NCBI RefSeq assembly: GCF_006345805.1
Contig: NC_043005.1
Location: 20,832,001-20,896,000 of the forward strand
Direction of reading: 5' to 3'
Length of the DNA stretch: 64,000 bases
Source: Octopus sinensis
Taxonomy: Eukaryota
This document shows, piece by piece, positions 371 to 64,000 of this stretch. Numbering within the stretch: the first letter of the stretch is position 1; each line of letters opens with the position of its first letter. Position numbers and translations under genes: made by a program. The notes below the pieces were generated by a model. That model searched no databases and was not told the origin of the DNA. It saw only the letters and a program-made list of their open reading frames with translations.

Positions 371-604
371 CCAATAATGAACATTTCAAGCTTAAAAAAG
401 TTAGCATACCAGTAGTGGGTATTTTAGGACAGTATAAGAATAAGACCTTAAAGGAATGTAATGAAGAATGCTACAGATATGATGGATGTAATTCTTACCA
501 GTATGAAGAGGAAAATAAATTATGTGTTCTGAGTAATGTGACTCAGTCGACTGATAAACTTAAACCCAGCAAAAAAAAAGTAGATGTGTACATAACTAAC
601 CCTG
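371..604 (+). CDS. Exon A1: PAN/Apple-like domain type A (4 Cys) of a PAN-Sushi repeat protein
   Basis: Polypyrimidine tract ending ttccag|, 234 bp open frame NNEHFKLKKVSIP...TLKECNEECYRYDGCNSYQYEEENKLCVLS...DVYITNP, donor G|GTCAGT; phase 1-1; paralogous to exons at 27223, 40346 and 63827. Confidence 0.9.
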
Positions 605-2386
605 GTCAGTAGACTATTTTCATTTTATTTATTATATGCATGTATTTTTGTATTTGCATCTGTGTGTGTGGCAATACTGCATGGCTAGGAGACATGGGCT
701 TTGATCTCAAAAGACATGAGAAGACTTGAAAGAAATGAATCGAGCATGCTCTATTCACTATGCAAATGTGTGCATATATGACGTAGTATAAATGTGCTGA
801 ATGCAAAACTGGTTTTAAAGAGAAATCAGATGTAGTGTGCAAGAAAGAAGACTATGCTTGTATGGACATGCTATGCATATGGATAACTAAAGATGGGTAG
901 AGCTTATGTATGATGGAGATGCAGGAAGACATGGGATGGAGTACTGATGGCTGACCTCAGGACACTGAATGTCATAGAAGTGATCACAGAGCACTGCAAT
1001 GTTTAGCAATATGTAATTTTTAAGAAGACTTGCTTTTTGCTTTACAACTGATTTCTGGCAGAACTTGGTTTGTATTGTGTGTGTGTGTGTGTGTGTTTGT
1101 GTATGGTGTGTGTGAGTACAAATGGGCATCTCACTCATATTACGTTTTCCTTATATCTTTCTCAACAGACCTTTATTCCTCCTTAAACCTTGCTACCTGA
1201 GGACATTTCAGTTGTTTCTTCCTTGCTACCTGAGAACTTTTCACTTGTTAGTCATTTTCTATTCAGTAATATTGCTCTCTACATCTACACATTTCACTGG
1301 TTATCCTCTCTGTCACCATATTATCCTTCCTCTTGCAAACCCATCCACCCTCTTGCATACAACAAGAGTAACTTAGTTTCATGCTGCTTGCCTCATCCTC
1401 AGTCATGAGCACCCAGTCCCTAGTGTAATAGCTAGTGTTCACTCAAGCCAACAATATATTGTAAACAAAGCGACCATCAGTAACTGATTTGCAACAAGTA
1501 AACCAGCTGGTTGTAAAATCTCAAGGAGATCAGAGTAGTAACTATACTAACAAGTCAATCACCACATGAAAGTGAGTGTTCCATATACATACATACATAT
1601 ATATATATATATATTGTTGTGTCTGGGGAGAGTCATTCTCTTTTAGTGCCTTATTATTTAACACACTCACCGGTAAAATTTCCACTTATTTCTTATTTTT
1701 ATTTTCTAAAATTTTTGTTGCGTCTTGCAACCTTTTCAATAGTCTTGACTCTGTCTGTTATTTACACTGCGTTCCCTTTTGTTTGTTTTTGCGCATGTGT
1801 GTGGGTCAGTGTGTGTGTGCCTATACATGCATACATGTACGTATGTATGTATGTGTGTTTGCATGTGTATGTATGTATATATGTGTGTGTATGTATATGT
1901 ATGTATGTATGTGTTTGCATCTGTATGTATGTATCCTGCATATTTATGTGTTTGCCTGTCAGTGTTTGTGTATTTTCTATGTATGTGTGTGTGAGCATGT
2001 GTTTGTATATGTATGCACCTCTGTCTCCTGGTGTGTGCATATCTGTGTGTGTGTGTGTTATGTAACTATGTACCATGTTTGTATGTATGGATGTGCATCC
2101 TTATATGTGTGGATCCGTGTCTCCATATGTGTCTGTTCATATAGTCTATATACCTATCCTTCTGTATATTGATCTGTTTATTTACATATCTAAATGCTTA
2201 CATACAGAAATAATAAATAAAAAAATATAAAAAACATAAAATAAAAAAATATTAAAAAATAACAAACATAAAAAACAAAAAAAATAATAATGATTTAAAA
2301 AAAAGGCATACACACACTCTCACACCCACATACATACATACATACATACATACATACATACATTTATCTACCTAACAGTCCACTAA

Positions 2387-2930
2387 CTATTCTACTTTAC
2401 CTGTGTAAACTGTGGGTATGGAGGTATGGTATTTATTGTGTATATTTCCTATTAATATTGGGGAGGTTTCATTTGTAAGGACATATTCTCGTATTTGACT
2501 GAGTGTTGGGTCTTTTGGGTGCTTGGATAAGATGCGGATGTCAAGTTGACCCAAGTTACCTCCATTGTGGTCTTTGGCATGTTGGTAGAGTATGGAGGAC
2601 TGTTTTCTGTCATCATATTGTCTTAGATGTTCATTTATCCGTTCCGCAATGCTCCTAGACGTCTCCCTTATGTACATCATGTTCATGTCCATACAAGCAC
2701 CTTCTATGCATCTTATGCTGTAAACTACATTTCGAGTTCTACAGTTAATACTAGGGCTAATTCTACACACCATGCAGTTATCATTGGTGCATATGGTATT
2801 CTTAAACGGGTACATCCTACATAGTTGTGATCTGATGGAGTTCCCTGGCTTTTCAACAATTTTAATGTTGAGTTTGCTCTCCTTCAGAGCTTTTCTAAAT
2901 CTATGGGCTAGTTCTCCATGGGCTGTGGAG
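2387..2930 (-). mobile_element. Penelope-like element fragment, GIY-YIG endonuclease
   Basis: ORF 2387-2815: C-x2-C...CRTRNVVYSIRC...YIRETSRSIAERINEH...LYQH...IRE, typical of the PLE endonuclease; boundaries approximate. Confidence 0.75.
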
Positions 2931-3289
2931 AACTAGCTAGAATAATGAACTAGTTAGAATAATGAACAATGTGTCCCCACTATGCGAACCCTGTGAAATG
3001 AAGAAACATATACAGAACTTCATACACTGCATGCAGTTCTCTGGATATGATCAGAAAGATAGGGTTCGTGTATACAGGGGGGCTAAAAAGAAATTAGATA
3101 ACATTATACGTAATGATACCAGTGGTACCTGCCCTAGATAGAGAAACAAAGAATGGAATAGAATACAAAGAACTTGTGACAAAGCAAACAGGGCGAACAT
3201 GTGGCATTAAACCGACAAATATCAAGGAGTGATGTTTGTAGAGGCCACAGTTTAGTCCCACTGCATGGCATCTTGTTACCACCTAATGC

Positions 3290-3766: not shown

Positions 3767-3771
3767 ATATA

Positions 3772-4496: not shown

Positions 4497-4500
<4 letters not shown>
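3772..4500 (-). mobile_element. RTE LINE 3' UTR fragments
   Basis: (CAT)n followed by cgtttaacgtc...gctggatgcccttcctaatgccaaccactccg, the reverse complement of the 3' end of the element at 9490-12470. Confidence 0.75.
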
Positions 4501-4823: not shown

Positions 4824-5892
4824 TATGGTTGGATAAACTACATGTCACTAAAAACCAACTGATTCTAAGTTTAGTAAAGTTTTTCCAGTCAGATATGTTT
4901 TCCAAGGAGGAAGAGAAATGGAGAAAATGATTGTATTCAATGATGTCAAAAGCAGCTTACTCATGCACAAACACACAGACATGCACAGACATGCAGACAG
5001 ACAGACAGACAGGATGTTCTGCAAATCATGGTAGAACAAAATCTCATCATAACTGTTGAGGAACTAGCAGAGAAGCTTGAATTTGGTCAATCAACCATAC
5101 ATCAACACCTGTGTGCTGTCGGAAAAGTCTGCAAAGTGAGTGAACGAAATCCTTACAAACTGTCCATGTCTAATCACACACACAGAGCATATTTGTGCTC
5201 TTCTTTGCTGTCACATGTCACAAATGAACCTCCTTTGGACTGAATAGTGACTGGTGATTAGAAATAGGTTCTCTATAAAAATGTCAAGTGCCAAAGACAG
5301 TGGTTCGGGAAGGGAGAAACACTGGTACTCTAGGCTAAAGAAGGTCTTCATCCACATAAAGTGCTGTTATCTGTTTGTTGGGATATGAAAGGTTTAGTCC
5401 ACTTTGAAGTTTTAAATCCAAAGCAAATGATAACAAAGGAGATCTACTGTGAGCAGCTTAAGTCAGGAAAAGGAAAAAATGACCATCTTTGGTTTCAGGA
5501 CAAAAGGTGTTCTTCCATCAGGGTCATGCTCAGCCACATACAGTAAGGATGACCTGCCAAAGGCAGAAGCGCTTTGAAATGGAAACAATGTCCCTGCCAC
5601 CATATTCTCTGAATATTGCCCCATCTGATTATCATTTATTCCGTAGTCTTCAGAATCATTTGGATGGGAAAAATATGAATTCTGTAGAAGATGTCAGAAC
5701 AGTACTGGAGGAATATTTTTCATCACAGAGAAGTGAATTTTGGAAGGGGGAACTTGGATGTTTACTAGATAGATGGAAAAGCTTTGCAGAAAATGAAAGA
5801 GAGTATATTTTAGATCCAAAAGAAACTTTGTTCATCTTAATTTTATAAAAAAAAAAGTATAAGAATCGGCATTATTATTGGAATTACTCAAT
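4824..5892 (+). mobile_element. Degenerate mariner element
   Basis: HTH-like ITVEELAEKL...STIHQHL, MLLSVCWDMKGLVHFE and LPPYSLNIAPSDYHLFRSLQNHL; many stops and frameshifts; boundaries approximate. Confidence 0.8.
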
Positions 5893-7465
5893 CATCATCA
5901 TCATTTAATGTACATTTTCTATGTTGGCATGGGTTGGACGCTTTGACTGGGGCTGGTAAGTTGAAAGGCTGAACCAGACTCCAGTCTGATTTGGCATAGT
6001 TTTGAATGGCTGGATGCTCTTTCTAATGCCAACTACTCCGAGAGTGTAATGGGTGCTTTTATGTGCCAACGGTATGGGTGCCATTTGCATTACACCAGTA
6101 TCTGCCATGAATGTGAATTTGGTTGGCTTGATAGGTCTTCTTCTCAAGCATGCCACAATGCCAAAGTCTCAGTCATTGCTTTAATGGGGCCCAATGTTCA
6201 AATGGAACTCAGCCACATTGCCTCCACGAGGCCCAATACTCGAAAGTGCCCTTTGCATGCCACTAGTACCAGCATTGGTCACGACTTTGATTTCACTTGA
6301 CTTGACAGGCCTTCTCAAACACAGCATATCACCAAAGATTTTGGGCAGTAGTCATCGCCTCAGTGAAGCTAAAATTTCAAGGATCATGATTCACCACTTT
6401 GTCCTATGTCTTTCAGCACAGTTGTCTCTCTTGCACAGCACAGCTGATGCCTCTTAAACCTAACTTTTCTTTCAAGATGCTTACAATCTGCAAACAGCAG
6501 AGATAGGAGCTCTCTGAACTTTGCCCAGCCTAATCTTATTCTCACAGCTATGCCCTTGGAACATCCATCTCCGCTACCAAACTGGTTATCTAGATAACAG
6601 AGGCAGTCTACTACATCTAGCTTGCCCCCCACCTTCACCCCCTGCATTTGATGGAGTCTGTTTTCTGTATATTTTCAGTATTGATTGTACATGTTCATCT
6701 TCCACATACAAAGGCTAGTTTCCTTGTTAACCTTCCTCTGTTATTGCTACACCTTTTATGTGTCCAAAGCTTACAACGGGTGCATCTTATGGAATTTCTA
6801 CCTATGCCTTTTCTACAGATCGAGCAGGGCCATCTACATGAAAGGAATTGTCATTTGTCTGCCTTCTTACTTAATAAGACTTTGGTTTTTGTTAGGTTAA
6901 CTCTAAGGTCTTTCGATTCTAGGCCTTGCTTCCATACCTGGAACATCTTCTTTAGTTAAGTTAGTGATTCAGCTATAAGAGCAAGGTCATCAGCATAGAG
7001 GAGCTCACAAGGGCAGCCTGTCTTGAATTCCTGTTTTTGCCTAGAGTACTATGATGACCAAGAGGGAGCTGCACATCGATCCTCGGTGAACCCGTATTTG
7101 TACCCTGAATTCTTTGCTGGACACATTGCCAACGCTCACCTAACTTATAGCATCTTTGTATATAGCTTGTACAACTCTCACCAACCACTTGACTAACACT
7201 AGTTTATGAAGTGACCACTAGATAAAGGAACGGGGGATCCTGTCAAAGGTTTTCTCCTTGTCCACAAAAGCCAAATACAGAGATTTGTCTGTGGCTATGT
7301 ATTTCTCCTGAAGCTGCCTTACCAGAAATAGTATCAGTGGTGCTTCACCCTGGCACAAAACTAAACTGCATCTCCTCTAAGCTAACTTTCTCCCTAATTA
7401 GTTGGGCTGATACTATCTCCATAACTTTTGTCATCTGATTCAACAATTTGATACCTCCGTAATTA
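5893..7465 (-). mobile_element. Degenerate RTE LINE (RT, PHD finger, 3' UTR)
   Basis: The reverse strand matches the 9490-12470 family (ELLYADD, RVNLTKTKV, RLGWAKFRELL); (CAT)n tail near 5893. Confidence 0.8.
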
Positions 7466-9119: not shown

Positions 9120-12100
9120 TTATCAAGATTTCTTGCCAATAGAGAAAGAACTTGTTTCTGACCAGTATCCAAGGCTTCTTCATTGGAATTTGAACATCAA
9201 CAACGTGTTTTTGTTAGTATATATGTATTTATGTATTTACGCAGATTATAATGCTTTGCTTTATGCATGTATTCTCATGCATATTGTTGCATATCTAGAC
9301 ATGCTCATATGTATTTGAATAATAAACTTCTGGAAAGTTGTACAGATTTTTACAGTTCCAGTGATTGATTGGATCTGTAGTCTTCAAATTAGCTCTCTCC
9401 TTTTTGGTTTTGAGAGGCTTCATTTCTCACGATCAGTGTTTAGGCAGTGTGTTACATAACCCAGTGTCTCAATAATTGCAGGTATAAACGACAGAGACCT
9501 TCTCTTTGTGGCTGGTGACTTCAATGGTCACGTTGGACGACATGCTGGGGGCTTCCATGGCGTACATGGAGGCTATGGCTATGGTTCCCACAATGAGGAG
9601 GGAACCAGGCTGCTGGAGTTCTGCGATGCAAATAATCTTATGATTTGCAACACTAACTTCAGGAAACCTACCAGCCACCTAGTCACCTACCGATCGGGCC
9701 AGCATACCAGCCAAATTGACTACATCCTTGCCAGGCAAAGGGAAAGATGGCTACTTATAAATGCCAAAACCTTCCCAGGTGAAGAATGTACCCAACAACA
9801 TAGACTGGTAGTTAGTGACTTTAGGATCAGGACTAGGAGGACAACCAGAAGACGACCAACATGGAGAAGAAGGATCTGGAAGCTTAAAGATCCTGCGAAT
9901 GGACAGGGATTAAGGACATGCTACTTGAAGCCTTTGATGAAGTAGAAGGGGATAGAGTATCACATGGGGTAGAGGGCAACTGGACGTTTCTAAGGGACAA
10001 CCTGCTGAGAGCCACTGACCAGATCTGTGGCTGGTGCAAAGTCCCCTCTCGTCCCAAGGTAACGTGGTGGTGGAACACTGTTGTAGACAGGGCTATTAGA
10101 GAAAAGAGACAGACTTGGAAGCACTGGAAGAATGGTGGTAGCAGGGAATTGTATAAGACTGTCAAAAGGGAAGCTAGGAGACAGGTCTATCTAGCCAGAG
10201 GGGAAACAGTTAAGAAAAAATTTGCCAATGTTCTGCGCCGTGAGGACCAAAGACTGGAGGTGTTTCGTGTTGCAAGACAGTGTGTGAGAGAGAATTGTGA
10301 TGTGGTAGGAGAGAAGTGTGTTCGCATGGAAGATGGTTCACTTGCGCTAAAGAGGATGCAAAGAGAGAGGCTTGGAGAAGCCACTATGAAAGGTTGCTGA
10401 ATAAAGAAAATGAATGGGATAAAGAGAGTCTGCCGAATGTTGACCCAACAGAGGGACCAGCTATCAGGGTTGATAGTTCCTTGGTAGTTAAGGCAATTAG
10501 AAGCATGAAGACAGGGAAAGCCCCAGGCCCATCAGGTATCACTGCAGAGATGCTCAAAATATCTGGTAGTGTCGGCTATAGCCTAGTCACCCGTATAGTT
10601 AATCAGGTGATACACGAAGGAGTCATACCCAATGACTGGTGTAGCAGCATAATAGTCAACTGCTACAAAGGTAAAGGTAATGCCCTAGATACAAATAATT
10701 ACAGAGGTATCAAGCTGTTGGATCAGGTGATGAAGGTTACAGAGAGGGTCATAAGCCAACTAATTAGAGAGAGAGTTAGTTTAGATGAGATGCAGTTTGG
10801 GTTCGTGGTAGGGGTCCACCAAGGCTCAGTCCTCAGCCCCCTCCTATTTATCATAGTCCTCCAGGCAATAACGGAGGAATTCAAGACAGGATGCCCCTGG
10901 GAGCTCCTCTAAGCTGATGACCTTGCTCTAATTGCTGAGTCACTATCAGAACTGGAGGAGAAGTTTCAGTTGTGGAAGCAAGGTTTAGAATCGAAGGGCC
11001 TTAGAGTCAATCTAGCTAAAACCAAAGTCGTAATAAGTAGGAAGGTAGACAAATCACAAACGCCTTCAGGTAGATGGCCCTGCTCGATCTGTAGAAAAGG
11101 TGTAGGTAGAAACTCTATAAGATGCACCAAGTGTAAGCTATGGACACATAAGAGGTGCAGCAATGTCAAAGGAAGGCTAACTAGGAAGATGGTTTTTGTA
11201 TGTGGCAGATGCTCGGGAGCATTAACCTCTGAAAATCTGCAGAAAACAACTTCCGTCACTTTCCAGGGGAAAAAACTAGAAGTAGTTGATAGCTTCCGTT
11301 ATCTTGGTGACCAAGTCAGTAGTGGGGGTGGGTGTGCTGAAAGTGTAACAGCTAGAGTAAGAATAGCCTGGGCAAAGTTTAGGGAGCTCTTACCTCTGCT
11401 GGTGACTAAAGGCCTCTCGCTCAGAGTAAAAGGCAGACTGTATGATGCATGTGTACGAACAGCCATGCTACATGGCAGTGAAACATGGGCTGTGACTGCT
11501 GAGGACATGTGTAAGCTCATGAGAAATGAAGCCAGTATGCTCCGATGGATGTGTAATGTCAGTGTGCATGCTCGACAGAGCGTTAGTACACAGAGAGAAA
11601 TATTGGACCTAAGGAGCATCAGTTGTGGTGTGCAAGAGAGACGTTTGCGCTGGTATGGTCATGTGGCGAGAATGGATGAAGATAGGTGTGAAAAAGTGCC
11701 AATCCCTAGCAGTGGAGGGAACCCGTGGAAGAGGTAGACCCAGGAAAACTTGGGACGAGGTGGTGAAGCACGACCTTCGAACTTTAGGTCTCACTGAGGA
11801 AATGAGCAGCGACCGAGACCTTTGGAAATATGCTGTGCGTGAAAAGACCAAGCAGGACAAGTGAGTCCAGCCCACTTATGCATGCTTTTCCTCCCTTGGA
11901 CACACAAAGACCTGTTGAGGCAAGCGAAGTCGATATCGAACCTCATCCGACGACAGGCACCTATGCCAACCCCCCTTAGCTTGCGAAGACCTGTTGGGGC
12001 AAGTGAAACCGAAATCGAAATCGGAATCGAAATTGAACCAATCCTATGACTGGTACCTGGTAGATGCCAGGACCCCTGGACTGGAGATACGTAAAAAGCA

Positions 12101-12870
12101 CTATCCGAATCGTGGCTGATGCCAGCGCCGCCTCGACTGGCTTCCGTATCGGTGGCACGTAAAAAGCACCATCCGAATCGTGGCCGAAGCCAGTGCCGCC
12201 TCGACTGGCTTCCGTGCAGGTGGCATGTAAAATGCACCAATCCGACCGTGGCTGATGCCAGCCTCACCTGGCACCAGTGCAGGTGGCACGTAAAAAGCAC
12301 CCACTACACTCACGGAGTGGTTGGTGTTAGGAAGGGCATCCAGCTGTAGAAACATTGCCAGATAAGACCGGAGCCTGGTGCAGCCTTCTGGCTTCCCAGA
12401 TCCCCGGTTGAACCGTCCAACCCATGCTAGCAAGGAGAACGGACGTTAAACGATGATGATGATGATGATGATAAACCTCAACTTGTAATCTGGATAGAGC
12501 AACTGCAAATTTCTCAATAGTTCAGTGTAGGTATCCTCTTTTTCACTTATTTTCAGTGTTAACGTCACTATGGAGCTAATTTACAGAACTATACACAGTT
12601 TCTCTTCTATCTCCCAAATCATTATGTCAGGTCTATTGTGCTTAGAATTTGTTGAGGTTTTCACTTGGATAATCCACCAGTACTTCTTTTTATTACGAGT
12701 GGTTATGACTTCTACCATACTGTGGGTTCATATTTCTTTGTTCTCTGGGTTATCATTCCCACGGATTTCATTATAGCATTACTTCTTTGTTACTTCATCA
12801 TATCTCATTGATTAATGATATCATGATGACATTTTCGGACAACTGCATATGATGTGGGTGATATGTATGG
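9120..12870 (-). mobile_element. Restriction-like endonuclease (R2/R4/NeSL-type) LINE 3' fragment split by the RTE insertion (host parts 9120-9489 and 12471-12870)
   Basis: The two flanks rejoin to match the + strand copy at 28490-29260 (KHNRPDIMIWD...Y.ELLRNLQL.YPDY). Confidence 0.75.
9490..12470 (+). mobile_element. RTE-clade LINE, 5'-truncated: APE endonuclease C-terminus, RT, PHD-type finger, (GAT)n tail
   Basis: AGDFNGHVG/SQIDYIL (APE), KAPGPSG/NYRGIKLL/GVHQGSVLSPLLF (RT), YADD mutated to *ADD, internal deletion near 10810, TSD ATAAAC at 9484-9489 and 12471-12476. Confidence 0.93.
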
Positions 12871-15943: not shown

Positions 15944-16114
15944 TTTACTCAAAGGTTGACTGTGGATCTCCAAAAGATGTTGTTGGTGCATTCAAGTTGT
16001 ACAATACCACCACCTATCAATCTGAAGTTATCTATACTTGCTCAAATGGAGAACAACTAAAGTCAGAATGTGAAAAGGACAGTAAATGGACTCCTGTAGC
16101 ATCTGTTTGTAATG
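15944..16114 (+). CDS. Exon S1: compact Sushi/CCP domain
   Basis: tttccag| acceptor, 171 bp, VYSKVDCGSPKD...YQSEVIYTCSNGEQLKSECEKDSKWTPVASVCN, donor G|GTAACG; C-x2-P...YxC...C-x5-W...C pattern; phase 1-1. Confidence 0.88.
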
Positions 16115-18489: not shown

Positions 18490-20380
18490 TTCTAAAGACG
18501 TGTCTGTAATACCAGAGCTGTGACCTCTCAGTGTGCAGAAGTAGCACCGCAACCTAGAGAGACTCCCTCGTCTGAGTTATTTATGTTTTTTTTCATATAC
18601 CCAGGCCTATTTCCCAATTTTTAGGGGTGGGTATATACAATAAGATACACACGAGGCATTCTATTCATTTCCTATCTTAAAATCACTCACCTCCTCTAAC
18701 ATCACACCATTTATACTCATATGCATCCGAACAGCCTTTCCGTCTCTTGAACATCTCATCACCTTACTCTTAGCTACATTCACTTTCAGTTTCCTCCTCT
18801 CACACACTTGTCAAAACCCTGCCACCGATTCCTCAATTGCCTTTTCGAATCTGCCACCAGTGCTGTATCAACAGCAAACAACAATTTACTCACCTGGTAT
18901 TTCTCTCCATTTCCTCCCGCTATTTGGGCTACCCTACCAAAGGCTCTAGCATTTACCTCTTTCACCACACCTTTCTTATATACATTAAACAGCCACTGAG
19001 ACATCACACAACCCACTCTGAACTCTACCTTCACATCAAATCACTCACTTATTTCACCACCCACCCTAACATATTCTCTACTTTTTCTATAAAAACTCTG
19101 TACATCTCTCAGCAATCTACCATCTACTCCATACAACCGTTACACCAGCCACATTGTATCCCTATCCACCCGGTCATATGCCTTATGTTGGTCCATAAGG
19201 ACTGAATACACCTCTCTCCCTTTGGCCAAAATTTTCTCATACATCTGTCTTGGTAGAAATATTTGATGTGTACACCCCATTCCACTCCTAAAACTGCTCC
19301 TCCCCTAGTACGCACTCTGTCATGTTCCTGAACATTACAATCATAATTATCCCATATAGTTTACCAACACACAAGAGACTTGCACCATCAAAATTTCCGT
19401 ACGAGCATTTATTCCCTTTTCCCTTGTACAATGGCAATATACAGGCACTGCACCATTTCTCTGGTACTCTTCCAGCCATATAACAAACATTCTTGAGCCT
19501 CACTAACCATTCAGTCACTGTCACTCCTCCTTTCTTAAGGCATTCCACTGTAAACTCATCTATACTTCTGGTTTGCCATCTTCCCAAGGATTCCCTCCAC
19601 TCCTCATTTCCAATTGCACCATAGTTCCATTCCCTAAAAACAAGCATTCTCCTCTCTCCTCCTACAGCCCTTATACTTGCCTCTCTAACATCCTCCATGT
19701 TTAACAGCTCACAAAAATACTCTGTACATCTCCTTTGTACATCCTTGCTTCCTTTCAACAAATTTCCATTTACAGCCATCACACTTTCATCCCTTCTTGC
19801 AGCTACCTTTTTTACACTCTGTACTTCTTTCCAAAACATCTTTTTATTTCTTACAAAATGTTTACTCAGCTTTTTCCTGAACCTTTCACTCACCTCCTAT
19901 TTCGCCACCCTACCACTCACTTTACTCTCCTCTTCAATTCTTTGTAGTGATCATAAACCTCTCCATCCTTTTTCTACAACCACTCTTCAAAGATCCTTTT
20001 CTTCTCTGCCACTGCATCCCTTACCTGCTCATTACACCAATCACTACCTTTCCTCACAGCCATTCCAACCACTTGTGTACCATATACCTCAGAGGCACAT
20101 CTCATTACTGCCTCTCTAAAAGCCTGCTCCACATCTACCTCCCATTTCTTAACCTGTTCATATTCACCTCTCAGTTTCTCTACCTACTCTTGCTCCTGCT
20201 CTCGCCCATCCTGTTCACTCATCTTCACAACCTCTCTCCTCCCTGTCACTCATCTAACAACCCTGCATTATATAAGCTGTCAATTAATGCCATTCTGAAA
20301 ATCTATTGGGGGGACAACAAATTTCTTCTTCTTCCCATTGGTACCCTATTATTCATTAACAAACATGAACACCAGTGAAG
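18490..20380 (-). mobile_element. Second RTE-family LINE relic (RT)
   Basis: ORFs 19288-19893 and 18786-19034: KKMFWKEV, W..ACILPLYKGKG, LGEEQ, GCVMSQWLFNVY, LLFAVDTALVAD. Confidence 0.8.
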
Positions 20381-20578: not shown

Positions 20579-20749
20579 ATTATGCGCAAATAAATTGTGG
20601 AACTCCAAAAGATATTGATACTGCATCAAAGTCATATAAAACCACCACCTATAAATCTGAAGTGACCTATACTTGCCCAAATGGAGAAAAACTAAAGTCA
20701 ACATGTGAAAAGGGCAACAAATGGACTCCAGTAGCTACTGCTTGTAAAG
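20579..20749 (+). CDS. Exon S2: compact Sushi/CCP domain (absent from the ORF track)
   Basis: aattacag| acceptor, 171 bp, DYAQINCGTPKDIDTASKSYKTTTYKSEVTYTCPNGEKLKSTCEKGNKWTPVATACK, donor G|GTAATG; phase 1-1. Confidence 0.88.
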
Positions 20750-23166: not shown

Positions 23167-23403
23167 ATGTTCAGATCCATTTTGTGAAAGTAAAAAATGC
23201 AACTCTGGATGTAACAGTAAAAACATTATGGAGTAAGAAAAAAGTAACAACAGATGCATGTGCTGAAAAATGTTTTTCTGACAAAACTTGTGCATCATTT
23301 GAAATAGAAAAAACAAGTGGACTCTGTTACTTATCAAAACAAACTGCAACATCCTCCAAAATAAAAACAGACCAAAGCAGAGATTACTACCAACGAGTAA
23401 AAT
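23167..23403 (+). CDS. Exon B1: PAN/Apple-like domain type B (4 Cys)
   Basis: actctag| acceptor, 237 bp, DVQIHFVKVKNATLD...DACAEKCFSDKTCASFEIEKTSGLCYLSK...SRDYYQRVK, donor T|GTAATT; phase 1-1. Confidence 0.9.
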
Positions 23404-27222: not shown

Positions 27223-27453
27223 CTGACACCCCTTTGAAGCTTAAGAAAGTTAGCATACCACAGAAGAATACTTTACAACAGCTTAAACAGAAGACCTTAA
27301 ATGAGTGTAATGAAGCTTGTCAACAATATGAAGGATGTAATTCTTATGAGTACAATGACCAGGATAAACTGTGTGGTCTGAGCGATGTGACACAATTGAC
27401 TAGTGAACTTAAACCCGACGATGGAAATTGGGATGTTTATCTCATGAGTCCAG
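27223..27453 (+). CDS. Exon A2: PAN/Apple-like domain type A
   Basis: ttttcccag| acceptor, 231 bp, DTPLKLKKVSIPQK...TLNECNEACQQYEGCNSYEYNDQDKLCGLS...WDVYLMSP, donor G|GTCAGT; phase 1-1. Confidence 0.9.
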
Positions 27454-29418: not shown

Positions 29419-29585
29419 TGTTTTCCAAAGTGGATTGTGGACCACCAAAAGACATTGCTAGTGCTCAAAGTCCTATAAAAGCACTACCTATAAATCTAAA
29501 GTAATCACTTGTCCAGAAGGAGAAACATTAAAATCGAGATGTGAAGACGACAATAAATGGACTCCAGTACCATCTACCTGTAAAG
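29419..29585 (+). pseudogene. Exon S3: Sushi/CCP exon with frameshift (pseudo-exon or assembly error)
   Basis: Intact cattccag| acceptor and G|GTAATG donor, but 167 bp instead of 171. A 1-bp deletion near 29465 and loss of the Tyr codon before TC give an in-frame TAA at 29502-29504. Conceptual repair: VFSKVDCGPPKDIA...TCPEGETLKSRCEDDNKWTPVPSTCK. Confidence 0.8.
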
Positions 29586-31589: not shown

Positions 31590-31826
31590 TCGCTGAGTTG
31601 CATTTTGCAAAAGTCGCAGATGCAATTCTGGATGTATCTGGGAAAACATTGGTGAAGAAAAATATAACAGCTGATGCTTGTGGAGAAAGATGTTTGTCTG
31701 AGCCAAATTGTATAGCATTTGAAATAACTAAAAGAGGTGGAAACTGTTACTTAGCATCTGAAACTGCAGATTCCACCAAGAAAATGAAATCAGACAAAAG
31801 CAGAGATTATTACCAACGAATAAAAC
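31590..31826 (+). CDS. Exon B2: PAN/Apple-like domain type B
   Basis: attccag| acceptor, 237 bp, VAELHFAKVADAILD...DACGERCLSEPNCIAFEITKRGGNCYLAS...SRDYYQRIK, donor C|GTAATT; phase 1-1. Confidence 0.9.
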
Positions 31827-36600: not shown

Positions 36601-37510
36601 GAAACATGAGCTGTGACTGCTGAGGACATGTGTAAGCTTGCAAGGAATGAAGCCAGTATGATCTGATGGATGTGTAATGTCAGTGTGCATACTCGACAGT
36701 GTGTAAGTACCTTGAGAGAAAAGTTGGACCTAAGAAGCATCAGATGTGGTGTGCAAGAGAGATGAATGCACTGGTATGGTCATGTGGCAAGAATGGATGA
36801 GGATAGCTGTGTGAAAAAGTGCCACACCCTAGTGGTTGAGGGAACCTGTGGAAGAGGTAGACCCAGGAAGACCTGGGATAAAGTGGTGGAGCACAACCTT
36901 CAAACATTAGGCCCCACCGAAGCAATGACTAGTGAGTGAGACCTTTGGAAATATGCTGTGCTTGAGAAGACCCAGCAAAACAAATGAGACAATAACCTTG
37001 TGACCTATGCCAGGGGTGTAACCAACCCACTTATGCGTACCTTTCTTCATTGGACACTAAACTCTGCATCTGAAGACCTGTTGAGGCAAGTGAAATCAAA
37101 ATCAAATTTCATGACTAGCATCCGTGCTAGTGGAGCGCTAACAGCACCATCCGAGTGTGATTGTTGCCAGAGCAGCTAACTGGTTTCCATGCCAGTGGCA
37201 CATAAAAAGCACCATTCGAGCATGATCATATCCAGCGTCGCCGTACTGGTACTTGTGCCGGTGACACTTGAAAAAAACATTCGAATGAGGTCCATGCTAG
37301 TACCGCCTGATTGGCACTTGTGCCAGCAGCATGTAAAAGCACCCACTACACTCTCGGAGTGGTTGGTGTTAGGAAGGGCATCTAGCTGTAGAAACTCTGC
37401 CAGATCAGGATTGGAGCCTGGTTTATCTATCTGATTCACCAGTCCTGAGTCAAATCATCCAACCCATGCTAGCATGGAAAGCATATGTTAAACGATGGTG
37501 GTGATGATGA
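33620..37510 (+). mobile_element. RTE LINE (RT, PHD finger, 3' UTR) interrupted by a CR1 insertion
   Basis: ORFs 33927-34370 (QFGFVPEKSTTDAIF...DMEKAFDRV) and 34591-35088; the element resumes at 36567; (GAT)n tail near 37495-37510. Confidence 0.9.
35077..36566 (-). mobile_element. CR1-clade LINE, 5'-truncated with 5' inversion
   Basis: Minus segment LYVTLVRPILEY...LERVQKLATRMV...YEERL; plus segment SPDGIH...NYRPVSLT, DFAKAF, GVPEGSVLG, LLFA; TSD TGCATGT at 35070-35076 and 36567-36573. Confidence 0.9.
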
Positions 37511-40345: not shown

Positions 40346-40579
40346 CAAAAGATGAAATTATTAAATTTAAAAATACTATGATACCAGGAGAAGATACTTT
40401 TGAACGAGTGGATAATGTGAGCTTAAAGGAGTGTGCTCAAGCTTGTCATCATAATCCAAAATGTAATTCTTATGAGTACCATGAAAAACATAAGTTCTGT
40501 GATCAAAGTAATGTGACTCACTTGTCTCATGACCTTCAACCCAGCAAATGGGGTTGGGATGTTTACATCATTAACCCAG
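40346..40579 (+). CDS. Exon A3: PAN/Apple-like domain type A, His-rich variant
   Basis: tctccag| acceptor, 234 bp, KDEIIKFKNTMIPG...SLKECAQACHHNPKCNSYEYHEKHKFCDQS...WDVYIINP, donor G|GTCAGT; phase 1-1. Confidence 0.9.
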
Positions 40580-45405: not shown

Positions 45406-48400
45406 AATAAGTATGTGTAAATAAGTTGTACCCTACTGTACAAGCCATAATTTAATTCAAATAAAAAATTACAAAAAATAAAATAAAATAAAATAAAAAA
45501 TAAAGATAGAAATAAAAAATACGAATAAAATAAAAATTTACAAAAACTATGTTCTCACGTAACTTATGTCTATAAATATAAAATTAATAATATAAAGAGA
45601 TAAAAAAATAAAATAAAATATATACTTGTGATGATATAAAATGGTATAAAATGAAAGGAATGGCAAAAAAATACATTCAAATAAAAATGGAAGCAACATC
45701 GAATAAATATTTTCGAATAAAAACTATAGTATGAATGACAAAATACAAAATTTACAAATGATACGAATGATAACAATTAAAAATTTACAAAGTAAAAATA
45801 ACTTAAGGGTAACGTAAAAGAATATCCGTTGACTCCATTGTCCTACTAGGTCTTAATTTCGGCTTGACATCGCAAGGTCCAGCGAATTACACTCCCACCT
45901 ACTTCCTTCTTCTTTTAAACTATTACTTAATTAACATATTACCTTAATAGTAACCATGGTCCAGGAAATACAAAAATGCATCATGGGAACATTACTTTTT
46001 TTATTTCGTATTATTCCGTATTATTCCCACCCTTTGTTCACTCACACCGCACTGCTATTCCTTCCCACATCTAATGGTAAGTTAATTTAACCTAGTACGT
46101 TCACATTAAATAATAATAATAGTAATAATACTTACGCTTTAAATTTAGGGTTTGGAATTATTAATTAGGGATTTCAATCTATGTTTACATTTAATTTTTC
46201 TTTCCTCCTGAGCATTTAGAAGCCACGTTTTAGCCCATAATATCTCCATGAATTCATGGGTACATAACAGACATGACCTATTTCCAATTCTATATGATTT
46301 CGCTTTACATATTATATCCCACTTTAATTCATAATTGATTCCTTTCGACTTTAAACTCCAAACGTATTTACTTAGTCCTGTTGAATTCATAAGTTCCTTA
46401 TTTTTACATGAATTCAAGTGCTGTGCTATTTGTTGTTTAATTTTATTCAATGTCGACCCAATATATGGATAATTTTCAATATTTGTATTATTTATTCCAC
46501 TATTTTCATTTTCATCTACTTTTACAGAAGCCACACATTTATATACTACATCACTTACATTACATCTTCCATTAAGTTTACAGTAGCTTTTATCCCTACG
46601 ATTACAACTATTATGATCTCCAGCCCTCCTATTCAGATGCTTATTTAATTTATCATAGTAATATTTATTCAGCCTATACTTATTTATTGATGAAATAATA
46701 TTCCCTACATTGTTAGTTGTTGAATACCCCACTCCTATATTATTTTCAGAGAATACTTCCATATATTTTTTATTATCCATAATAAATGATTCTATTGTAT
46801 TAGTGATATCTTTAATAATATTACTTTTAACTTGAGTACCATATTATCAACCATATTATTTTATTATTTTTATTTATGTTTATATTATTAATCCCCTTAT
46901 CTTTATTTACACAAGTTTTGTTATTATCTTCTATATTATTTGTATTATTTGTATATAAGTATTGTCTCCATTATGATTTTCTTTTAATTTTAAATCCTTC
47001 CCCATTAAACTCAACCTATCCTTATACTTTATACCATTTATATTTTTCCTGTGTTTTATGTGTTTTATCATCTTGAATTCCATAACATGACGGTGTGTTA
47101 TCCTATTCTGACTATTATACATATTTTTCTTTTTCTTTTTATTATTATATACATTTCTATTCTCGTTTACATTTACATTTATCTTACTTCCTATATTAAC
47201 ACTATTTAGGTTACTTACATTTTTGTGTTTTATATAATTATTCCTATTAATATTCTTATTATAGAATTTAATTTCTTCCTTATATCCAGCCTTCCTTAAT
47301 GCTTCATTATAGTAGTCAGCGTGTTTTAGGAAGCTCTCACAATTCAAAGAGAGCATTTATATCCTTTTCCCTATGTTATCTATTAGTATCTTTTTTACCG
47401 AGGGTGGGGGGTGATTACTATCTGCATTTATGTATTTTAGGTTTTCATTAAGTTTATGGAAAGGCTGTATTGTATTAATTCTGTAGTAATGTTCAAATTT
47501 GCATCTAAAAAGTTTACGTTATAATGTTCATTATATATAATAGTTTCTAACCCATGATTTTTAAAAAACCTGTATAATTTCTTTTTATAATTTTCAAGAG
47601 TTCTATTTGTACAATTTTTTGTTATTTAACGTAAATCATCCCTATATAAGCCCCCTTCAATATTTAAATTTTCTAATTTTAATTCAGAAAGCAGGTATAT
47701 CCCAACTAGGTCGGTTACCTGTGCTGAATTTGGTGCTCCCATAGGTACATCAAAATGTTCCCTTGTGTCCTTTCTAGCCCATAATTTATTTTTGTGTTTA
47801 ATGTGTGTTTTTCTTGCCATTTGGATTACCTTAATTTCCTCCATCATCATTCCTGTTCTATTTTTAGCATATATCAAGGCCTTATTCAACACTATTTCAT
47901 TTATGGAAGCATAATAATTATCAATATCTATTTGTATGAACTTATATTCCTTATTGTTTTTTATATTTTTAAACTATTGTAAAGTTTCTATTGTACTGCC
48001 CCATAACATAACTTTAGGTAACCTAAATTATTTAATTTGTTTATATATTTATCTAATATTAATTTACTTAATTTCCCTAGGTCCGACTTCCATGGGCATA
48101 TTAGTCGGACTTTAGGGTCTGCATAGAAATTATCTTTATGGTCTTTTAGCGTTATCCTTGGGTGCAATGGCACATAGGGTTCTGTTTTTTATCTAGTTCA
48201 TAATTCATCATAATTACTTTATAACACTTATTTATTTTCTTTAAAGTATTATTTTGGACTATTTTATATTTTTTGTTGATTTCTTTCTCTAGTAAACTAT
48301 CATCTACCTTAGGATATTTGTGATTTGTTACCTCTACTACTTATTGAGACTTTGGTCTTTGCTAGGTTAACACAAACCCACCAACTCTAGACCTTGCTTC

Positions 48401-50152: not shown

Positions 50153-50323
50153 ATTATTCACAAATTGAGTGTGGACCTCCAAAAGAAATTGTTGGTTCAG
50201 TGAAGTCCTATAATTCCACCTTGTATAAATCTGAAGTCACCTATACTTGCCCAAAAGGAGAAAAACTGAAGTCAATGTGTGAAAAGGACAATGAGTGGAC
50301 TCCAGTTGTATCTTCTTGTAATG
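50153..50323 (+). CDS. Exon S4: compact Sushi/CCP domain
   Basis: aattccag| acceptor, 171 bp, DYSQIECGPPKEIVGSVKSYNSTLYKSEVTYTCPKGEKLKSMCEKDNEWTPVVSSCN, donor G|GTAATA; phase 1-1. Confidence 0.88.
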
Positions 50324-53001: not shown

Positions 53002-53238
53002 ATTCTGCGATCCATTTTGTGAAAGTAAATGATGCATCTCTGGATGTGACGGGGAAAATATTGAGTAAGAATGCAGTAACAGCAGACGCTTGTGCAGAAA
53101 GATGTCTTTCTGATGAAAATTGTTTATCATTTGAGATGTCTAAAGGAAATGGTAAATGTTACTTATTGAAGCAAACAGCAGCTTCCCACAAGAAAATAAA
53201 AACAGACAAAAGCAGAGATTACTACCAAAGAGTAAAAT
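53002..53238 (+). CDS. Exon B3: PAN/Apple-like domain type B
   Basis: actctag| acceptor, 237 bp, DSAIHFVKVNDASLD...DACAERCLSDENCLSFEMSKGNGKCYLLK...SRDYYQRVK, donor T|GTAATT; phase 1-1. Confidence 0.9.
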
Positions 53239-55467: not shown

Positions 55468-57010
55468 TAGGCAATTACGGAGGAATTCAAGACAGGTTGC
55501 CTCTGGGAGCTCCTCTATGCTGACGACCTTGCTCTAATTGCTGAGTCACTATCAGAACTGGAGGAGAAGTTCCAGGTGTGGAAGGAGGGTTTAGAATCGA
55601 AGGGCCTTAGAGTCAACCTAGCTAAAACCAAAGTACTAATAAGTAGGAAGGTAGACAATCTACAAATGTCTTCAGGAAGATAGCCCTGCTCGATCTGTAG
55701 AAAAGGTGTAGGTAGAAACTCTATAAAATGTACCCAGTGTAAGCTATGGACACATAAGAGGTGCAGCAATGTCAAAGGTAGGCTAACTGGGAAGATATTT
55801 TTTGTATGTGGCAGATGCTCGGGAGCATTAACCCCCGAAAATCTGCAGAAAACAACTTCCGTCACTTTCCAGGGGAAAAAACTAGAAGTAGTTGATAGCT
55901 TCCGTTATCTAGGTGACCAAGTCAGTAGTGGGGGTGGGTGCATTGAAAGTGTAACTGCTAGAATAAGAATAGCCTGGGCAAAGTTTAGGGAGCTCTTACC
56001 TCTGCTGGTGACTAAAGGCCTCTCACTCAGAGTAAAAGGCAGACTGTATGATGCATGTGTACGAACAGCCATGCTACATGGCAGTGAAACATGGGCCGTG
56101 ACTGCTGAGGACATGCGTAAGCTCGCGAGGAATGAAGCCAGTATGCTCCGATGGATGTGTAATGTCAGTGTACATACTCGACAGAGCGTTAGTACCTTGA
56201 GAGAAATGTTGTATCTAAGAAGCATCAGTTGTGGTGTGCAAGAAATACGATTGCGCTGGTATGGTCATGTGGCGAGAATGGATGAAGATAGGTGTGTGAA
56301 AAAGTGCCAATCCCTAGCAGTTGAGGGAACCCGTGGAAGAGGTAGACCCAGGAAAACCTGGGACGAGGTGGTGAAGCACGACCTTCGAACTTTAGGCCTC
56401 ACTGAGGAAATGACCAGCGACCAAGACCTTTGGAAATATGCTGTACGTGAGAAGACCAGGCAGGACAAGTGAGCCCAGCCCACTTATGCATGCCTTTCCT
56501 CCCTTGGACACAAAGACCTGTTGAGGCAAGCGAAGTCGATATCGAACCTCATCCGACGACAGGCACTCATGCCAACCCCCTTTGCTTGCAAAGACATGTT
56601 GGGGAAAGTGAAATCGAAATCGAAATCAGAATCGAAATTGAACCAATCCTATGACTGGCACCCGGCAGATACCAGGGCCCCTGGACTGGTGGTACGTAAA
56701 GAGCACTATCCGAATTGTGGCCGATGCCAGTGCCGCCTCGACTGGCTTCCGTGCCGGTGGCACGTAAAATGCACCAATCCGACCGTGGCTGTTGCCAGCC
56801 TCACCTGGCACCTGTGCGGGTGGCACGTAAAAAGCACCCACTACACTCACGGAGTGGTTGGCGTTAGGAAGGGCATCCAGCTGTAGAAACATTGCCAGAT
56901 AAGACTGGAGCCTGGTGCAGCCTTCTGGCTTCCCAGATCCCCGGTCGAACCGTCCAACCCATGCTAGCATGGAGAACGGACGTTAAACGATGATGATGAT
57001 GATGATGATG
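55468..57010 (+). mobile_element. RTE LINE, 5'-truncated recent copy
   Basis: Near-identical to 10863-12470 including the 3' UTR; ELLYADD intact; (GAT)n tail at 56989-57011. Confidence 0.92.
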
Positions 57011-60500: not shown

Positions 60501-60774
60501 TTCTACAGATGTTCTAGAGAAACTATAGCCAGAACTGATTTTTGTTACAGCATTATTTTGTATTGAGACCGATGTAAAGAAACAATTGAAGACAAAAATG
60601 AGTAATGAGTGTATATAACAAAATTTGGGGGTTTTGCCCTTTCATCAGCACCTATATAACCCATTCCCACATCTGAACATATTGCTTATATAGCCACTGC
60701 ATAGAATGGTGTTAAGTTATTGGGTATACCAATTTACATATTAGACATATTCCTGGAGCTGGTACATAAACATT

Positions 60775-61116: not shown

Positions 61117-61639
61117 AGGTTTATTGTTTATCCCTAGAACCTATAAACAATAGTGGTTTCATTTAAAAAACTTGTCTGTGGGGTTAGAGAAAGGCAGAAA
61201 GTAGGGGTGACAGTGAGCCTGCTTGGAAATTCCTTCTTCTGATGGGTATAGAGCAGGTTTTAATGATTTGTGAGTCATTTTTTAATGTTATATTGGTTTT
61301 CCAGTTTGTCATTGCATGTTTAATATAATTTATTAGTGGTGGGATGACCTTATTCATGGGGAGAGATTATCATTGTTATTATTATTATTATCATTATTTT
61401 CATTAGCATCTTCTTTCAGTTCTCGTTCCACTTCTTGCTAAGTGTGTTCCTGACACCTAGGGCAGTGAAACATACTGTATACATTGGTAGGCCATTAAAA
61501 CAAACACATTCGTTTGTTCATTGACAGTCATGTGATAGAGAATAAGGGATGACAGAGAGAAAAAGGAAAAAATGAAAAAGAGAAAAGTAAATAAATACAA
61601 TAAATGGGACAAAGGAGAGCAAATTCACAGAGATGGTGC

Positions 61640-63020
61640 TCATTTCAATACCTGTGATGTACCAGTTAAGTCAGTCTTTTGCAATTCTTGCATGGATGGT
61701 AAGCCAGGGATCATTCTTAAATAATTTCCAAATCACTGGAAATTGTAACCATCTTGAAATGCCACATGTTTTCGATTTTGATTAGCAAATCTTTATATTT
61801 TCGGAGCTTATAAAGTTCTTTTACTGAGATATTATGGGCACAAGGAATACTCGTGTCAATCAACAAATAGACTTTATTTCTTTTGTCTATCACAATAAAA
61901 TCTGGTTTATTTGCCTTGATGATTCAGTCTGTACATACTGCGAAGTCCCAAAAATAGTTACATTTTCTCCCTCAGTTACAGCTTCAGAGTGGTACTCGTA
62001 CCATTCGTCAGCAGTTTTGAATTTATAATACCAATAAATTATCCTATGTAGATATTGGCCAACTCTGTCATGTCTTGATTTGTACTCTACAAGTACTAAA
62101 ACCTCACATATAGAGATTAAGTGGTTGACTATATCTATCAGCACTTTTGGTCAATACCTTTTATCATCACATTGGTTTGATAGTTTGGGGTTAATAAGCT
62201 CTGATCGTGGGCAACCAAGATAAAACCATCATTCTCTGCCTATAGCACTGAGCTCCATAGCCACTGATAAGTGTGCTTCTGGTCTACATCAGCTTGTTTG
62301 CTATGGGCCACATAGTTGCCATGCAGTTTTTGTTCCCACCCATCAGACAATTTTTCAAGCACATTTTGCTTTGCTATTGATTCACCTTCTTTGCAACTAC
62401 AGTTGCTGCACTTCCCTCATGCTGTTCAACCTGAGTATTATGCATAAACTCACTTGAACATTTTTTCCCCTCCTTCGTAACTGAATGAAGCTTCCTCTTT
62501 CATGGTGTTCCATGAGCATCCAGTCCTTATATATTTCAAGATATTTTGGTGGTTTTGTAGATTTCAAATTGGATAAATCTTGATCTCCTTGAGCTCTGGG
62601 TAGGCAAAAATCGTCTGCCTCTGCCTTTGGGTGGTGCATTTTATTGCAAGTCAGCAGGTTACGGATTTTTCTGTCAATCTTCCTTATTTTGCTCACATTC
62701 CAGTTCAACACATTGAAACTGTAAATAACAACCAGAACTGCTAAGGAATTTATAGCTAACACCTTGTTATGTGCATTTAACTCAGATTTTAGGACTGCTT
62801 GAACTCTCCTGTAACACTCTTTCTTTATCTTCTCATTCATACTTGCATGTTGAATGCCAGAGCCCCCATTTATTCCGAGTTATTTGTGAGTTTGTTCCTG
62901 CTTGAGTTATTTTATGAGTGTGTCAAAACCACTGAATATGAAGTCTTCAGTGTTCCTTTCTGTAAAGTGGCCTTAGCACATTTATCAAGACCAAATTCCA
63001 TCCCATTATTACAGGAAATG
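61640..63020 (-). mobile_element. R4/Dong-like RLE LINE 3' half
   Basis: VLKSELNAHNKVLAINSLAV, MHHPKA, YKSRHDRVGQYLH..I, ENVTI, followed by degenerate PD...D...K.Y endonuclease. Confidence 0.8.
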
Positions 63021-63826
63021 AAATTTTTAATATAATATGAAAAAGCCATCTGGTGCATTATGAAATCCTAATCCAACCAGAAAATTATGTTTTTGCATAA
63101 GACAATCTTCTCAGAATAAATAAGAATTCTGCTACATCAGGAGACATACATGAATGCTCACCTGAATAGTTTGGTTGTACGTAATCCTTTCATACATCCC
63201 TCCCCTAATGGCATGTAATTCTTTAATATGGCATGGCAATTACAACACTTGATACATTGGTTAACTACCTGTTCTACCACTCTTGCATGAATTCTTAAAA
63301 GGGTATCATTTTGGAAATAATTTTTTTATTTCTTTTACCTTTTAATTGTTTTATTCATTAGACTGCAACCATGCTGGGGCACTATCCTAAAGAATTTTAG
63401 ATAGATGAATTAACCCCAATAGTTACATTTCTTTAAAACTTGAAACTTTTTATGATAGTTTATTTTGCCAAACTGCTAAGTTACAGGGACATAAACACCC
63501 CAAAACCAGATGTCAAGCAGTGGGGGGGGGGGACAAACACAAATACAAACATAAAGATTATCTGTCTCTCTGTCTATCTCTCCCTCTTTCTTTCTCTCTC
63601 TCTCACACACAAACACACACACACAGTGGACTTTCAATTTCTCTCTATCAAATCCACTCAAAAAGCTTTGGTTGGCCTAAAGATATAATAGAAGGTGCTT
63701 GCTCAGAGTGTCACACAATGGAAGAGAACCTAAAATCTTGTCATGTGTTTAAGAAGCAAACTTCTTACCATAAATCCACGCTTTTGAGTAAAAAACATAT
63801 TTCTTGTTTTCTTTTTCTTTTTTCAG

Positions 63827-64000
63827 CTGACAAACCTTTGCAGATTAAAAAAGTTAGCATACAAGAGAAGGATACTATTGGAAGGCTTAGAAATGTGAAA
63901 TTAAAGACGTGTAATGAAGCTTGCCATCAGTATCCGGGATGTAATTCTTATCAGTACAATGAGAAGGCTAAATTCTGTGATCTGAGCAATGCAACTGAGT
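63827..64000 (+). CDS. Exon A4 (truncated by window end): PAN/Apple-like domain type A
   Basis: tttcag| acceptor, DKPLQIKKVSIQEKDTIGRLRNVKLKTCNEACHQYPGCNSYQYNEKAKFCDLSNATE..., open to the window end; most similar to A2. Confidence 0.88.

Follow-up and report, generated by a model that had tools for sequence, protein, structure and literature searches.

Titin and nebulin with their super-repeats and apolipoprotein(a) with its kringle array are giant repeat proteins in which each domain is encoded by one exon. Among modules of the PAN/apple type, the strict apple domain has a third disulphide which joins the domain ends, and the apple domains of prekallikrein and factor XI contain six cysteines. 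Much smaller relatives are the GON-domain proteins of coleoid salivary glands, GON-Abd-1 and GON-Sep-2; a venom-gland survey by Ruder et al. in 2013 is said to be the source of these names. The Toxoplasma apple-domain adhesin MIC4 binds galactose according to passages of PMC6608980 and PMC6829480, and in a passage of PMC3338439 the GON domain of ADAMTS9/GON-1 is described as acting in endoplasmic reticulum-to-Golgi transport. Here we analysed a stretch of 64,000 nucleotides from Octopus sinensis (contig NC_043005.1, positions 20,832,001 to 20,896,000, forward strand), hereafter called the window. It contains 11 exons of a giant array gene built from PAN and Sushi domains, which is likely to have grown out of the domain cassette of such a small salivary-gland protein.

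The exons were located by a self-search starting from the first exon and by a scan for open segments between AG and GT. All are on the plus strand and follow one another as A S S B A S B A S B A, with the third S frameshifted. Each encodes a single domain, PAN in the A and B exons and Sushi in the S exons, and all are of phase 1-1. In the following list positions refer to a 13-exon super-repeat and differences to P0174, an automated public protein model of 4,470 amino acids; both are described below.

371..604, plus strand: exon A1, PAN class A, 234 bp; position 1; PAN_1 35.9 bits; identical to P0174 domain 33.
15944..16114, plus strand: exon S1, compact Sushi/CCP; position 2; Sushi 21.6 bits; 1 difference from P0174 domain 34.
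20579..20749, plus strand: exon S2, Sushi; position 3; Sushi 21.6 bits; 1 difference from P0174 domain 35.
23167..23403, plus strand: exon B1, basic PAN class B; position 4; PAN_1 40.1 bits; identical to P0174 domain 36.
27223..27453, plus strand: exon A2, PAN class A, 231 bp; position 5; PAN_1 41.9 bits; 1 difference from P0174 domain 37.
29419..29585, plus strand: exon S3, Sushi, frameshifted, 167 bp; position 6; O. sinensis P0009 and P0174 (domain 38) have an open counterpart.
31590..31826, plus strand: exon B2, PAN class B; position 7; PAN_1 36.7 bits; identical to P0174 domain 39.
40346..40579, plus strand: exon A3, PAN class A, His/Trp-rich subtype with a WGWD motif as in the compact paralogue, 234 bp; position 8; PAN_1 36.8 bits; 1 difference from P0174 domain 40.
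50153..50323, plus strand: exon S4, Sushi; position 9; Sushi 21.8 bits; identical to P0174 domain 41.
53002..53238, plus strand: exon B3, PAN class B; position 10; PAN_1 43.9 bits; whole domain present in O. bimaculoides P0001 at 79%.
63827..64000, plus strand: exon A4, PAN class A, truncated at the window end and therefore lacking a donor here; position 11; PAN_1 26.5 bits; 57 of 57 residues identical to P0174 domain 42.

Lengths are class-specific in the nine intact exons (A 231-234, S 171, B 237 bp), which have pyrimidine-rich AG acceptors and donors which differ by class (A GTCAGT, S GTAA, B GTAATTAT). Joined and recomputed they amount to 1,923 bp; one frame is free of stops and the other two contain 48 and 83. 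The original prediction of 11 exons with class-typical lengths and donors, nine of which join into an open frame, thus stood for these nine; S3 has 167 instead of 171 bp and is frameshifted, and A4 is without a donor in the window. Introns measured 2.0-15.3 kb, with a mean of 6.3 kb per exon. The first 30 intron bases past the donor were 50-90% alike within a class; therefore, the exons were copied together with their flanks. With profiles of the three classes the ten open exons gave E values of 2e-26 to 2e-39, and the best values in the reversed window were 0.61-1.5. This excluded a chance array. A six-frame profile scan of the window yielded no further A, B or S exon and no GON exon, no start or end exon of the gene was found in the 64 kb, and a search of Rfam gave no matches.

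The assignment to PAN and Sushi domains was borne out. Pfam PAN_1 was above its gathering score (21.4) in all seven PAN exons (26.5-43.9 bits), and Sushi was above its cut-off (20.7) in the three intact S exons by a margin of about 1 bit (21.6-21.8 bits). The S exons share invariant C6, C32, C42, W48 and C55. The PAN exons in the window encode four cysteines each and lack the third disulphide of the strict, prekallikrein-type apple domain. Out of 139 full domains, 138 had four cysteines and 95 had N-glycan sequons; the counts therefore fit with a secretory product. A structure model of P0009, which is 89-92% identical to B2, A3 and S4 (predicted local distance difference test, pLDDT, 75; predicted template modelling score 0.51), matched known apple/PAN structures with a C-x3-C helix and a four-cysteine core. 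The best match of the B fold was the N-domain of HGF (Z 13.2, root mean square deviation, rmsd, 1.7, 79 residues aligned), followed by leech anti-platelet protein (Z 9.3, rmsd 2.8, 78 aligned), SML-2 and MIC4 (Z 8.5-9.1) and saratin (Z 5.7). Residues 234-289, the S domain, matched many CCP modules (Z 4.2-5.2, rmsd about 2.5, about 52 aligned). By sequence, the HGF N-domain was likewise the best solved relative of class B (E 0.0018; common motif KK...TAD.C..RC), and Lys or Arg occupied the aligned basic positions, which in HGF are heparin-binding residues, in 23, 24 and 22 of 32 B domains. For the class A profile it was Toxoplasma MIC4 (E 1.1e-7). Mean net charges were +6.9 for B, +2.6 for S and -0.3 for A domains.

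The gene had been considered hidden. This has to be revised: automated public models exist, which are fragmented (3-6 pieces per species) and carry the wrong names 'ADAMTS-like' or 'SVEP1-like'. A B-exon profile found nine long-protein matches among 1,422 candidates, all nine from Octopus, in agreement with the proposed lineage restriction. Domains 33-42 of P0174 correspond to the window exons in the same sequence; of 660 aligned residues 4 differ. In P0174 the S3 copy is open, B3 is reduced to 49 of 78 residues and the model starts inside an A domain. It has 32 detected domains before and 24 after those of the window, i.e. the array extends beyond both window edges as anticipated. Judged by its sequence, the window represents, in another haplotype or assembly, the P0174 locus, a gene already predicted and uncharacterised. 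Its exons are also collinear, one to one, with domains 1-11 of O. bimaculoides P0001, and the class order is fixed between Octopus species. A description of the array protein was not found in the literature covered, from which subscription journals were mostly absent; passages of PMC7656900, PMC12607849, PMC3879455 and two bioRxiv preprints on venom do not mention it.

The public names are misassignments because the corresponding domains are absent. No catalytic motif was seen, HExxH being absent from all 11 proteins scanned, Pfam metalloprotease and TSP1 domains were missing in the array models scanned, and vWA, EGF and pentraxin domains were missing in P0001-P0009, P0174, P0172, P0012, P0011 and P0168. 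Hits of MBD, SH3_3, Get5_N, Binary_toxB and Nup188_N on the long models were rejected as weak Pfam sums over repeats in which no single stretch passes.

A plain (Sushi-PAN-PAN)n period, as initially proposed, was not confirmed. Instead, the repeating unit comprises 13 exons, A S S B A S B A S B A S B, and the window contains 11 exons of one unit. O. bimaculoides P0001 is exactly two such units and P0003 is one unit plus ASSB. In P0174, with four partial B pieces reinstated as slots, same-class identity was 78% at lag 13 (22 pairs), 77% at lag 24, 72% at lag 11 and 71% at lag 37, compared to 53-66% at every remaining lag between 1 and 40. A three-exon period was discarded as lag 3 showed no excess identity (55%). 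The single period of 13 is not universal; P0172 peaks at lags 8, 12, 16, 20 and 24, in part due to partial or missing domains in the model. On domain trees (42 A, 39 B and, as a quick tree, 54 S rows; labels assigned from the domain string alone) position labels clustered, with 13 vs 25.9, 13 vs 23.9 and 15 vs 34.0 changes and none of 200 shuffles as low, a clustering which near-copies inflate; rows of P0006-P0008 were unassigned and some labels of P0002 and P0004 are uncertain. Only class A position 8 approaches a clade. One repeat upstream, the neighbour of the window unit is 83-98% identical for most domains and the duplication is therefore recent.

The array was shown to be coding and under purifying selection. 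The ratio of nonsynonymous to synonymous changes (dN/dS) between paralogous exons was 0.38-0.77 in eight of nine pairs and 1.13 in one; synonymous differences amounted to 22-52%. In a neutral simulation the probability that nine exons are all stop-free with all 36 cysteines was 1.6e-4 at 5% and 2e-8 at 10% divergence. Openness was partly a criterion for selecting the exons, yet only one of the 11 exons found by homology is broken. This exon, S3, has a one-base and a three-base gap relative to its sister exons and a stop at 29502-29504, and both its splice sites are intact. If the lesion is real, skipping of S3 would keep the frame at the loss of one spacer, and splicing it in would truncate the protein. 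The lesion may also be an assembly error. The two gaps in one exon do not prove a real lesion because the chance of two random indels falling into the same exon is 0.09. The O. bimaculoides model P0005 ends within its copy of this position-6 Sushi exon, near the site of the three-base gap, where a donor-like word GTAAT is located; this may be chance or mark a weak spot.

How large is the product? Four models on one O. vulgaris contig, P0174, P0172, P0012 and P0006, do not overlap; the best identity of array domains across models is 78%. The 10,471 amino acids which they total comprise 152 domains (65 S, 46 A, 41 B; partial ones included) and one GON domain, which ends P0172. Extrapolated at the exon density of the window, this corresponds to close to 1 Mb of genome. 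A further GON domain is present in P0004, none in the window or in P0174. No ZP domain or transmembrane segment was detected in these 10,471 residues of predicted protein, in which the end of the P0174 gene is not established, nor was a transmembrane-like stretch seen in any of the four models. Later hydrophobic stretches were confined to two models from O. sinensis, where they lay in interdomain inserts resembling read-through intron. The array models look like fragments from which the true N-terminus is missing. The accessions of the named records are close together (CAI9728787, -791, -792 and -796). By accession, the O. bimaculoides models P0003, P0005 and P0001 follow directly on one another, in order along P0174, and P0007, the orthologue of P0006, comes next; P0002 and P0004, both matching P0172, have older numbers and no placement in this order. 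Possibly P0174 and P0172 form one gene (at least 8,750 amino acids) followed by a second one; other arrangements are also possible. We infer a product of at least about 4,500 amino acids or, if P0174 joins P0172, of at least about 8,750 with a GON end.

The original prediction knew of no named family. No characterised full-length family was found indeed, but a named small relative exists, the cephalopod salivary-gland GON-domain protein. GON-Abd-1 (P0167; Abdopus R4G2C1; Octopus LOC106874924) has 465 amino acids and consists of signal peptide-B-A-S-GON, that is one cassette. With the GON end of P0004 as a query, only two cephalopod clusters were obtained among shorter proteins (2 of 124 candidates), GON-Abd-1 and a Sushi-GON cluster with cuttlefish GON-Sep-2 (R4FJA6). 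The Sepia model P0019 is A-S-S-GON. O. vulgaris, O. sinensis and O. bimaculoides have GON-Abd-1 orthologues on the chromosome-scale contigs that also bear the array, and the GON domains of P0172 and the compact paralogue are 58% identical. Signal peptides are present in P0167, P0169, P0170, P0021 and P0156. A quick tree comprised 51 A domains, with P0012, O. bimaculoides, O. sinensis and two short rows of P0006 excluded. In it, the A domain of GON-Abd-1 and the last A before GON in P0172 fell outside the other 44 array A rows (Shimodaira-Hasegawa-like approximate likelihood ratio test 92, branch not starred); Sepia and other cephalopod PAN pairs fell further out. The WGWD-type motif of the paralogue is retained in the position-8 A subtype. 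In O. vulgaris the proteome of the posterior salivary gland lists the group with R4G2C1 and LOC106874924 with 18 peptides, 43.1% coverage and 48 spectra (PMC7693380, Tables S1 and S5). No paper on a GON domain in the posterior salivary gland was found in the literature covered, and the passages of three recent venom papers do not touch on this family.

Judging from these sequence comparisons, the giant was likely built by copying the compact gene's PAN-PAN-Sushi cassette in tandem. In the simplest history the compact gene would have been duplicated, B-A-S copied in tandem, and a block of four cassettes with one extra S copied in turn. With one domain per exon and all exons in phase 1-1, any block could be duplicated or skipped in frame, and unequal crossing-over would lengthen the array.

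Several observations concern the surroundings of this family. Other secreted proteins of octopods (P0037, P0119, P0134) contain the B-A PAN pair as a mobile module at the N-terminus: in Argonauta it occurs as four PANs alone and before VWD-C8-TIL-VWA, in Octopus before a Thr-rich stalk and three WSC domains. Short secreted PAN-GON proteins are widespread in other molluscs (P0057 from Haliotis, P0058, P0047 and many matches of 290-420 amino acids), often misnamed ADAMTS9-like, and are the likely wider background of the cephalopod GON proteins. Atlas matches serve as leads only (first ones 0.90-0.91, fewer than 170 shared features); according to them, molluscs commonly pair PAN with Sushi or with GON in short proteins. 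The GON domain was modelled with a pLDDT of 89 and matched no solved fold (Foldseek best E 0.12, a procollagen C-propeptide; VIA best Z 3.4), which implies neither kinship nor novelty. A COLFI likeness of its first 40 residues is below threshold and we do not claim GON-mediated assembly.

What could such a chain do? On balance we consider it probable, by a narrow measure, that the product of the array grown out of the salivary GON-gene cassette is a long, likely secreted, non-catalytic multivalent scaffold which cross-links glycan-coated surfaces. The reading is based on the basic, HGF-N-like B domains, the MIC4-like A domains and the absence of HExxH. The chain would be a disulphide-bonded, glycosylated and polycationic string of beads with dozens of glycan-binding sites. 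Its job would be to gel, glue or coat a gland secretion such as mucus, saliva or egg cement, not catalysis. B domains would bind sulphated or acidic glycans, as the HGF N-domain does with heparin, A domains neutral sugars, as do apicomplexan apple domains, with Sushi domains as spacers; this particular division of ligands is tentative and we would sooner expect it to fail than to hold. The GON domain may serve export, as in ADAMTS9/GON-1, or binding. A bolder version is a doubtful conjecture, slightly more so than the ligand assignment. It would have one octopod-specific gene of about 1 Mb encode a single secreted chain of 9,000 to more than 10,000 residues, with about 150 PAN/Sushi domains in titin-like super-repeats and a GON cap, evolved from a venom-gland protein and still gaining and losing exons within species, i.e. 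a polyvalent, polycationic glycan glue of a size undescribed in any cephalopod secretion.

A number of points speak against the scaffold. At 14-25% identity, the resemblance to HGF-N and MIC4 implies no ligand, and the B domain of the compact paralogue is without the two Lys ahead of the first cysteine. The giant is known here from exons and gene models, and no RNA run was listed for exon B2. All 13 array models lack a signal peptide at their start and begin within or just before a repeat domain. The linkage of P0174 and P0172 is conjectural, and the O. bimaculoides accession order allows two or more large genes. Values of dN/dS of 0.38-1.13 indicate weak constraint, the branch that parts array and paralogue is the unstarred one, and with the intact splice sites of S3 the haplotype at hand could yield a truncated product. 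Finally, the giant's two older accessions are not among the rows listed of the salivary proteome (PMC7693380), nor are its ids among the matches listed in the skin mucus table (PMC10138644).

Alternatively, the locus would be a bank of interchangeable exons that are variably spliced, or several mid-sized genes, which make recognition proteins of varied length for immunity, sperm-egg contact or self-recognition. With all exons in phase 1-1 any subset stays in frame, a lone broken exon is harmless if skipped, dN/dS is as high as 1.13, and 3-6 model pieces per species in an order that permits more than one gene suit such a bank. However, Dscam has clusters of same-class alternative exons, and here adjacent exons differ in class and their order is conserved across species. 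Moreover, the searches gave only two Octopus clusters with GON, and the 64 kb showed neither a start nor an end exon. We consider this explanation unlikely. A little less likely still is a component of venom or saliva which acts on prey, binds collagen or haemolymph proteins as do the leech PAN-fold proteins LAPP and saratin, and gains avidity from the array. The compact paralogue is a posterior salivary gland protein named in a coleoid venom-gland set, and the B fold also matches the leech anti-platelet protein (Z 9.3) and saratin (Z 5.7). Yet the older accessions of the giant are absent from the listed salivary proteome rows, an activity of the paralogue is not on record in the parts of the literature covered, and a chain of thousands of residues would presumably diffuse poorly.

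The broken exon raises the question of whether the expansion is decaying or dispensable and this haplotype a null allele, as S3 spliced in would truncate the protein. The frameshift between intact AG and GT, introns full of retroelement copies and the end of P0005 within its copy of the same exon would agree with decay. But ten of 11 exons are open with all cysteines, the S3 counterpart is open in P0174, P0009 and P0001, dN/dS is mostly below 1 and the gaps in S3 could be an assembly error, all of which makes decay improbable. Most improbable of all is an apical matrix protein, membrane-tethered or of ZP type, comparable to the PAN-ZP proteins of nematodes and insects: PAN arrays are typical there and ZP-bearing clusters occur among the Atlas structure neighbours (all with template modelling scores below 0.5), yet ZP and transmembrane segments are absent from the 10,471 residues of models and the sole C-terminus found is GON.

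The introns contain additional features. A retroelement of the long interspersed nuclear element (LINE) type, with endonuclease, reverse transcriptase and a PHD-like finger, is present in three copies, 86-89% alike and with broken frames; an older inverted piece is 76% alike and also broken. By their motifs, three open stretches resemble Penelope-type reverse transcriptase or GIY-YIG ends and one resembles a mariner-type transposase end; three decayed reverse-transcriptase-like fragments without long terminal repeats (non-LTR) were judged by eye. None of these seven stretches had a Pfam match at E 0.001.

9400-12450, plus strand: LINE-type copy.
33620-36990, plus strand: LINE-type copy.
55469-56987, plus strand: LINE-type copy.
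6495-7096, minus strand: older inverted LINE-type piece.
2387-2932, minus strand: presumed Penelope-type stretch.
46145-46843, minus strand: presumed Penelope-type stretch.
41830-42930, plus strand: presumed Penelope-type stretch.
5483-5848, plus strand: presumed mariner-type transposase end.
19288-19896, minus strand: non-LTR reverse-transcriptase-like fragment.
35847-36579, plus strand: non-LTR reverse-transcriptase-like fragment.
62397-62879, minus strand: non-LTR reverse-transcriptase-like fragment.

The architecture, the super-repeat, the size and the traceable salivary-gland origin are new; growth by symmetric exons and PAN-Sushi or PAN-GON pairings are already established. The surprise is limited as tandem growth of symmetric exons is well known. 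Nevertheless, the locus is a clean case of a giant extracellular protein made from a small gland protein by duplication of exon blocks, with stages of the process on hand: a one-cassette sister gene, intermediate cuttlefish forms and recent repeats of 83-98% identity. It corrects the labels 'ADAMTS-like' and 'SVEP1-like' and the metalloprotease label on cephalopod GON proteins, which is wrong because no catalytic motif is present. The role of the venom-gland GON proteins becomes approachable via small B-A-S units, and a candidate structural component of octopus secretions is brought out which annotation has split into uninformative pieces.

The array shares with the coleoid salivary GON proteins the B, A and compact Sushi domains in B-A-S order and a contig in three species; their GON C-terminus is seen in the array model P0172. 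The salivary proteins have one cassette in 465 amino acids, or S-GON and A-S-S-GON in Sepia, and the giant has tens in super-repeats; signal peptide and gland expression were seen for the compact form only. With the N-domain of HGF/plasminogen it has in common the fold and the four-cysteine core, and B and HGF-N share the basic motif KK...TAD.C..R/K; unlike HGF/plasminogen, prekallikrein and factor XI, it is without kringle and protease and has dozens of four-cysteine PAN copies with Sushi spacers. The apicomplexan adhesins (Toxoplasma MIC4, Sarcocystis SML-2, Eimeria MIC5) similarly possess tandem PAN pairs and include the best solved class A relatives by sequence. They belong to an unrelated lineage, have far fewer domains and neither Sushi nor GON, and the likeness established here is one of sequence and fold. 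ADAMTS9/20/GON-1 share the GON domain, whereas the giant has no metalloprotease motif or TSP1; SVEP1 shares many Sushi domains, whereas vWA, EGF and pentraxin are absent here. The annelid Dimorphilus has long near-identical PAN arrays of its own (P0034 and P0042; 1,964 and 3,398 amino acids), apparently a separate expansion. As in these and in titin, nebulin and apolipoprotein(a), the octopus array displays tandem duplication of symmetric exons, a higher-order period and near-identical recent copies. It differs from them in its domains and in that its unit combines three domain classes in an extracellular 13-exon super-repeat and that the one-cassette sister gene survives in the cluster.

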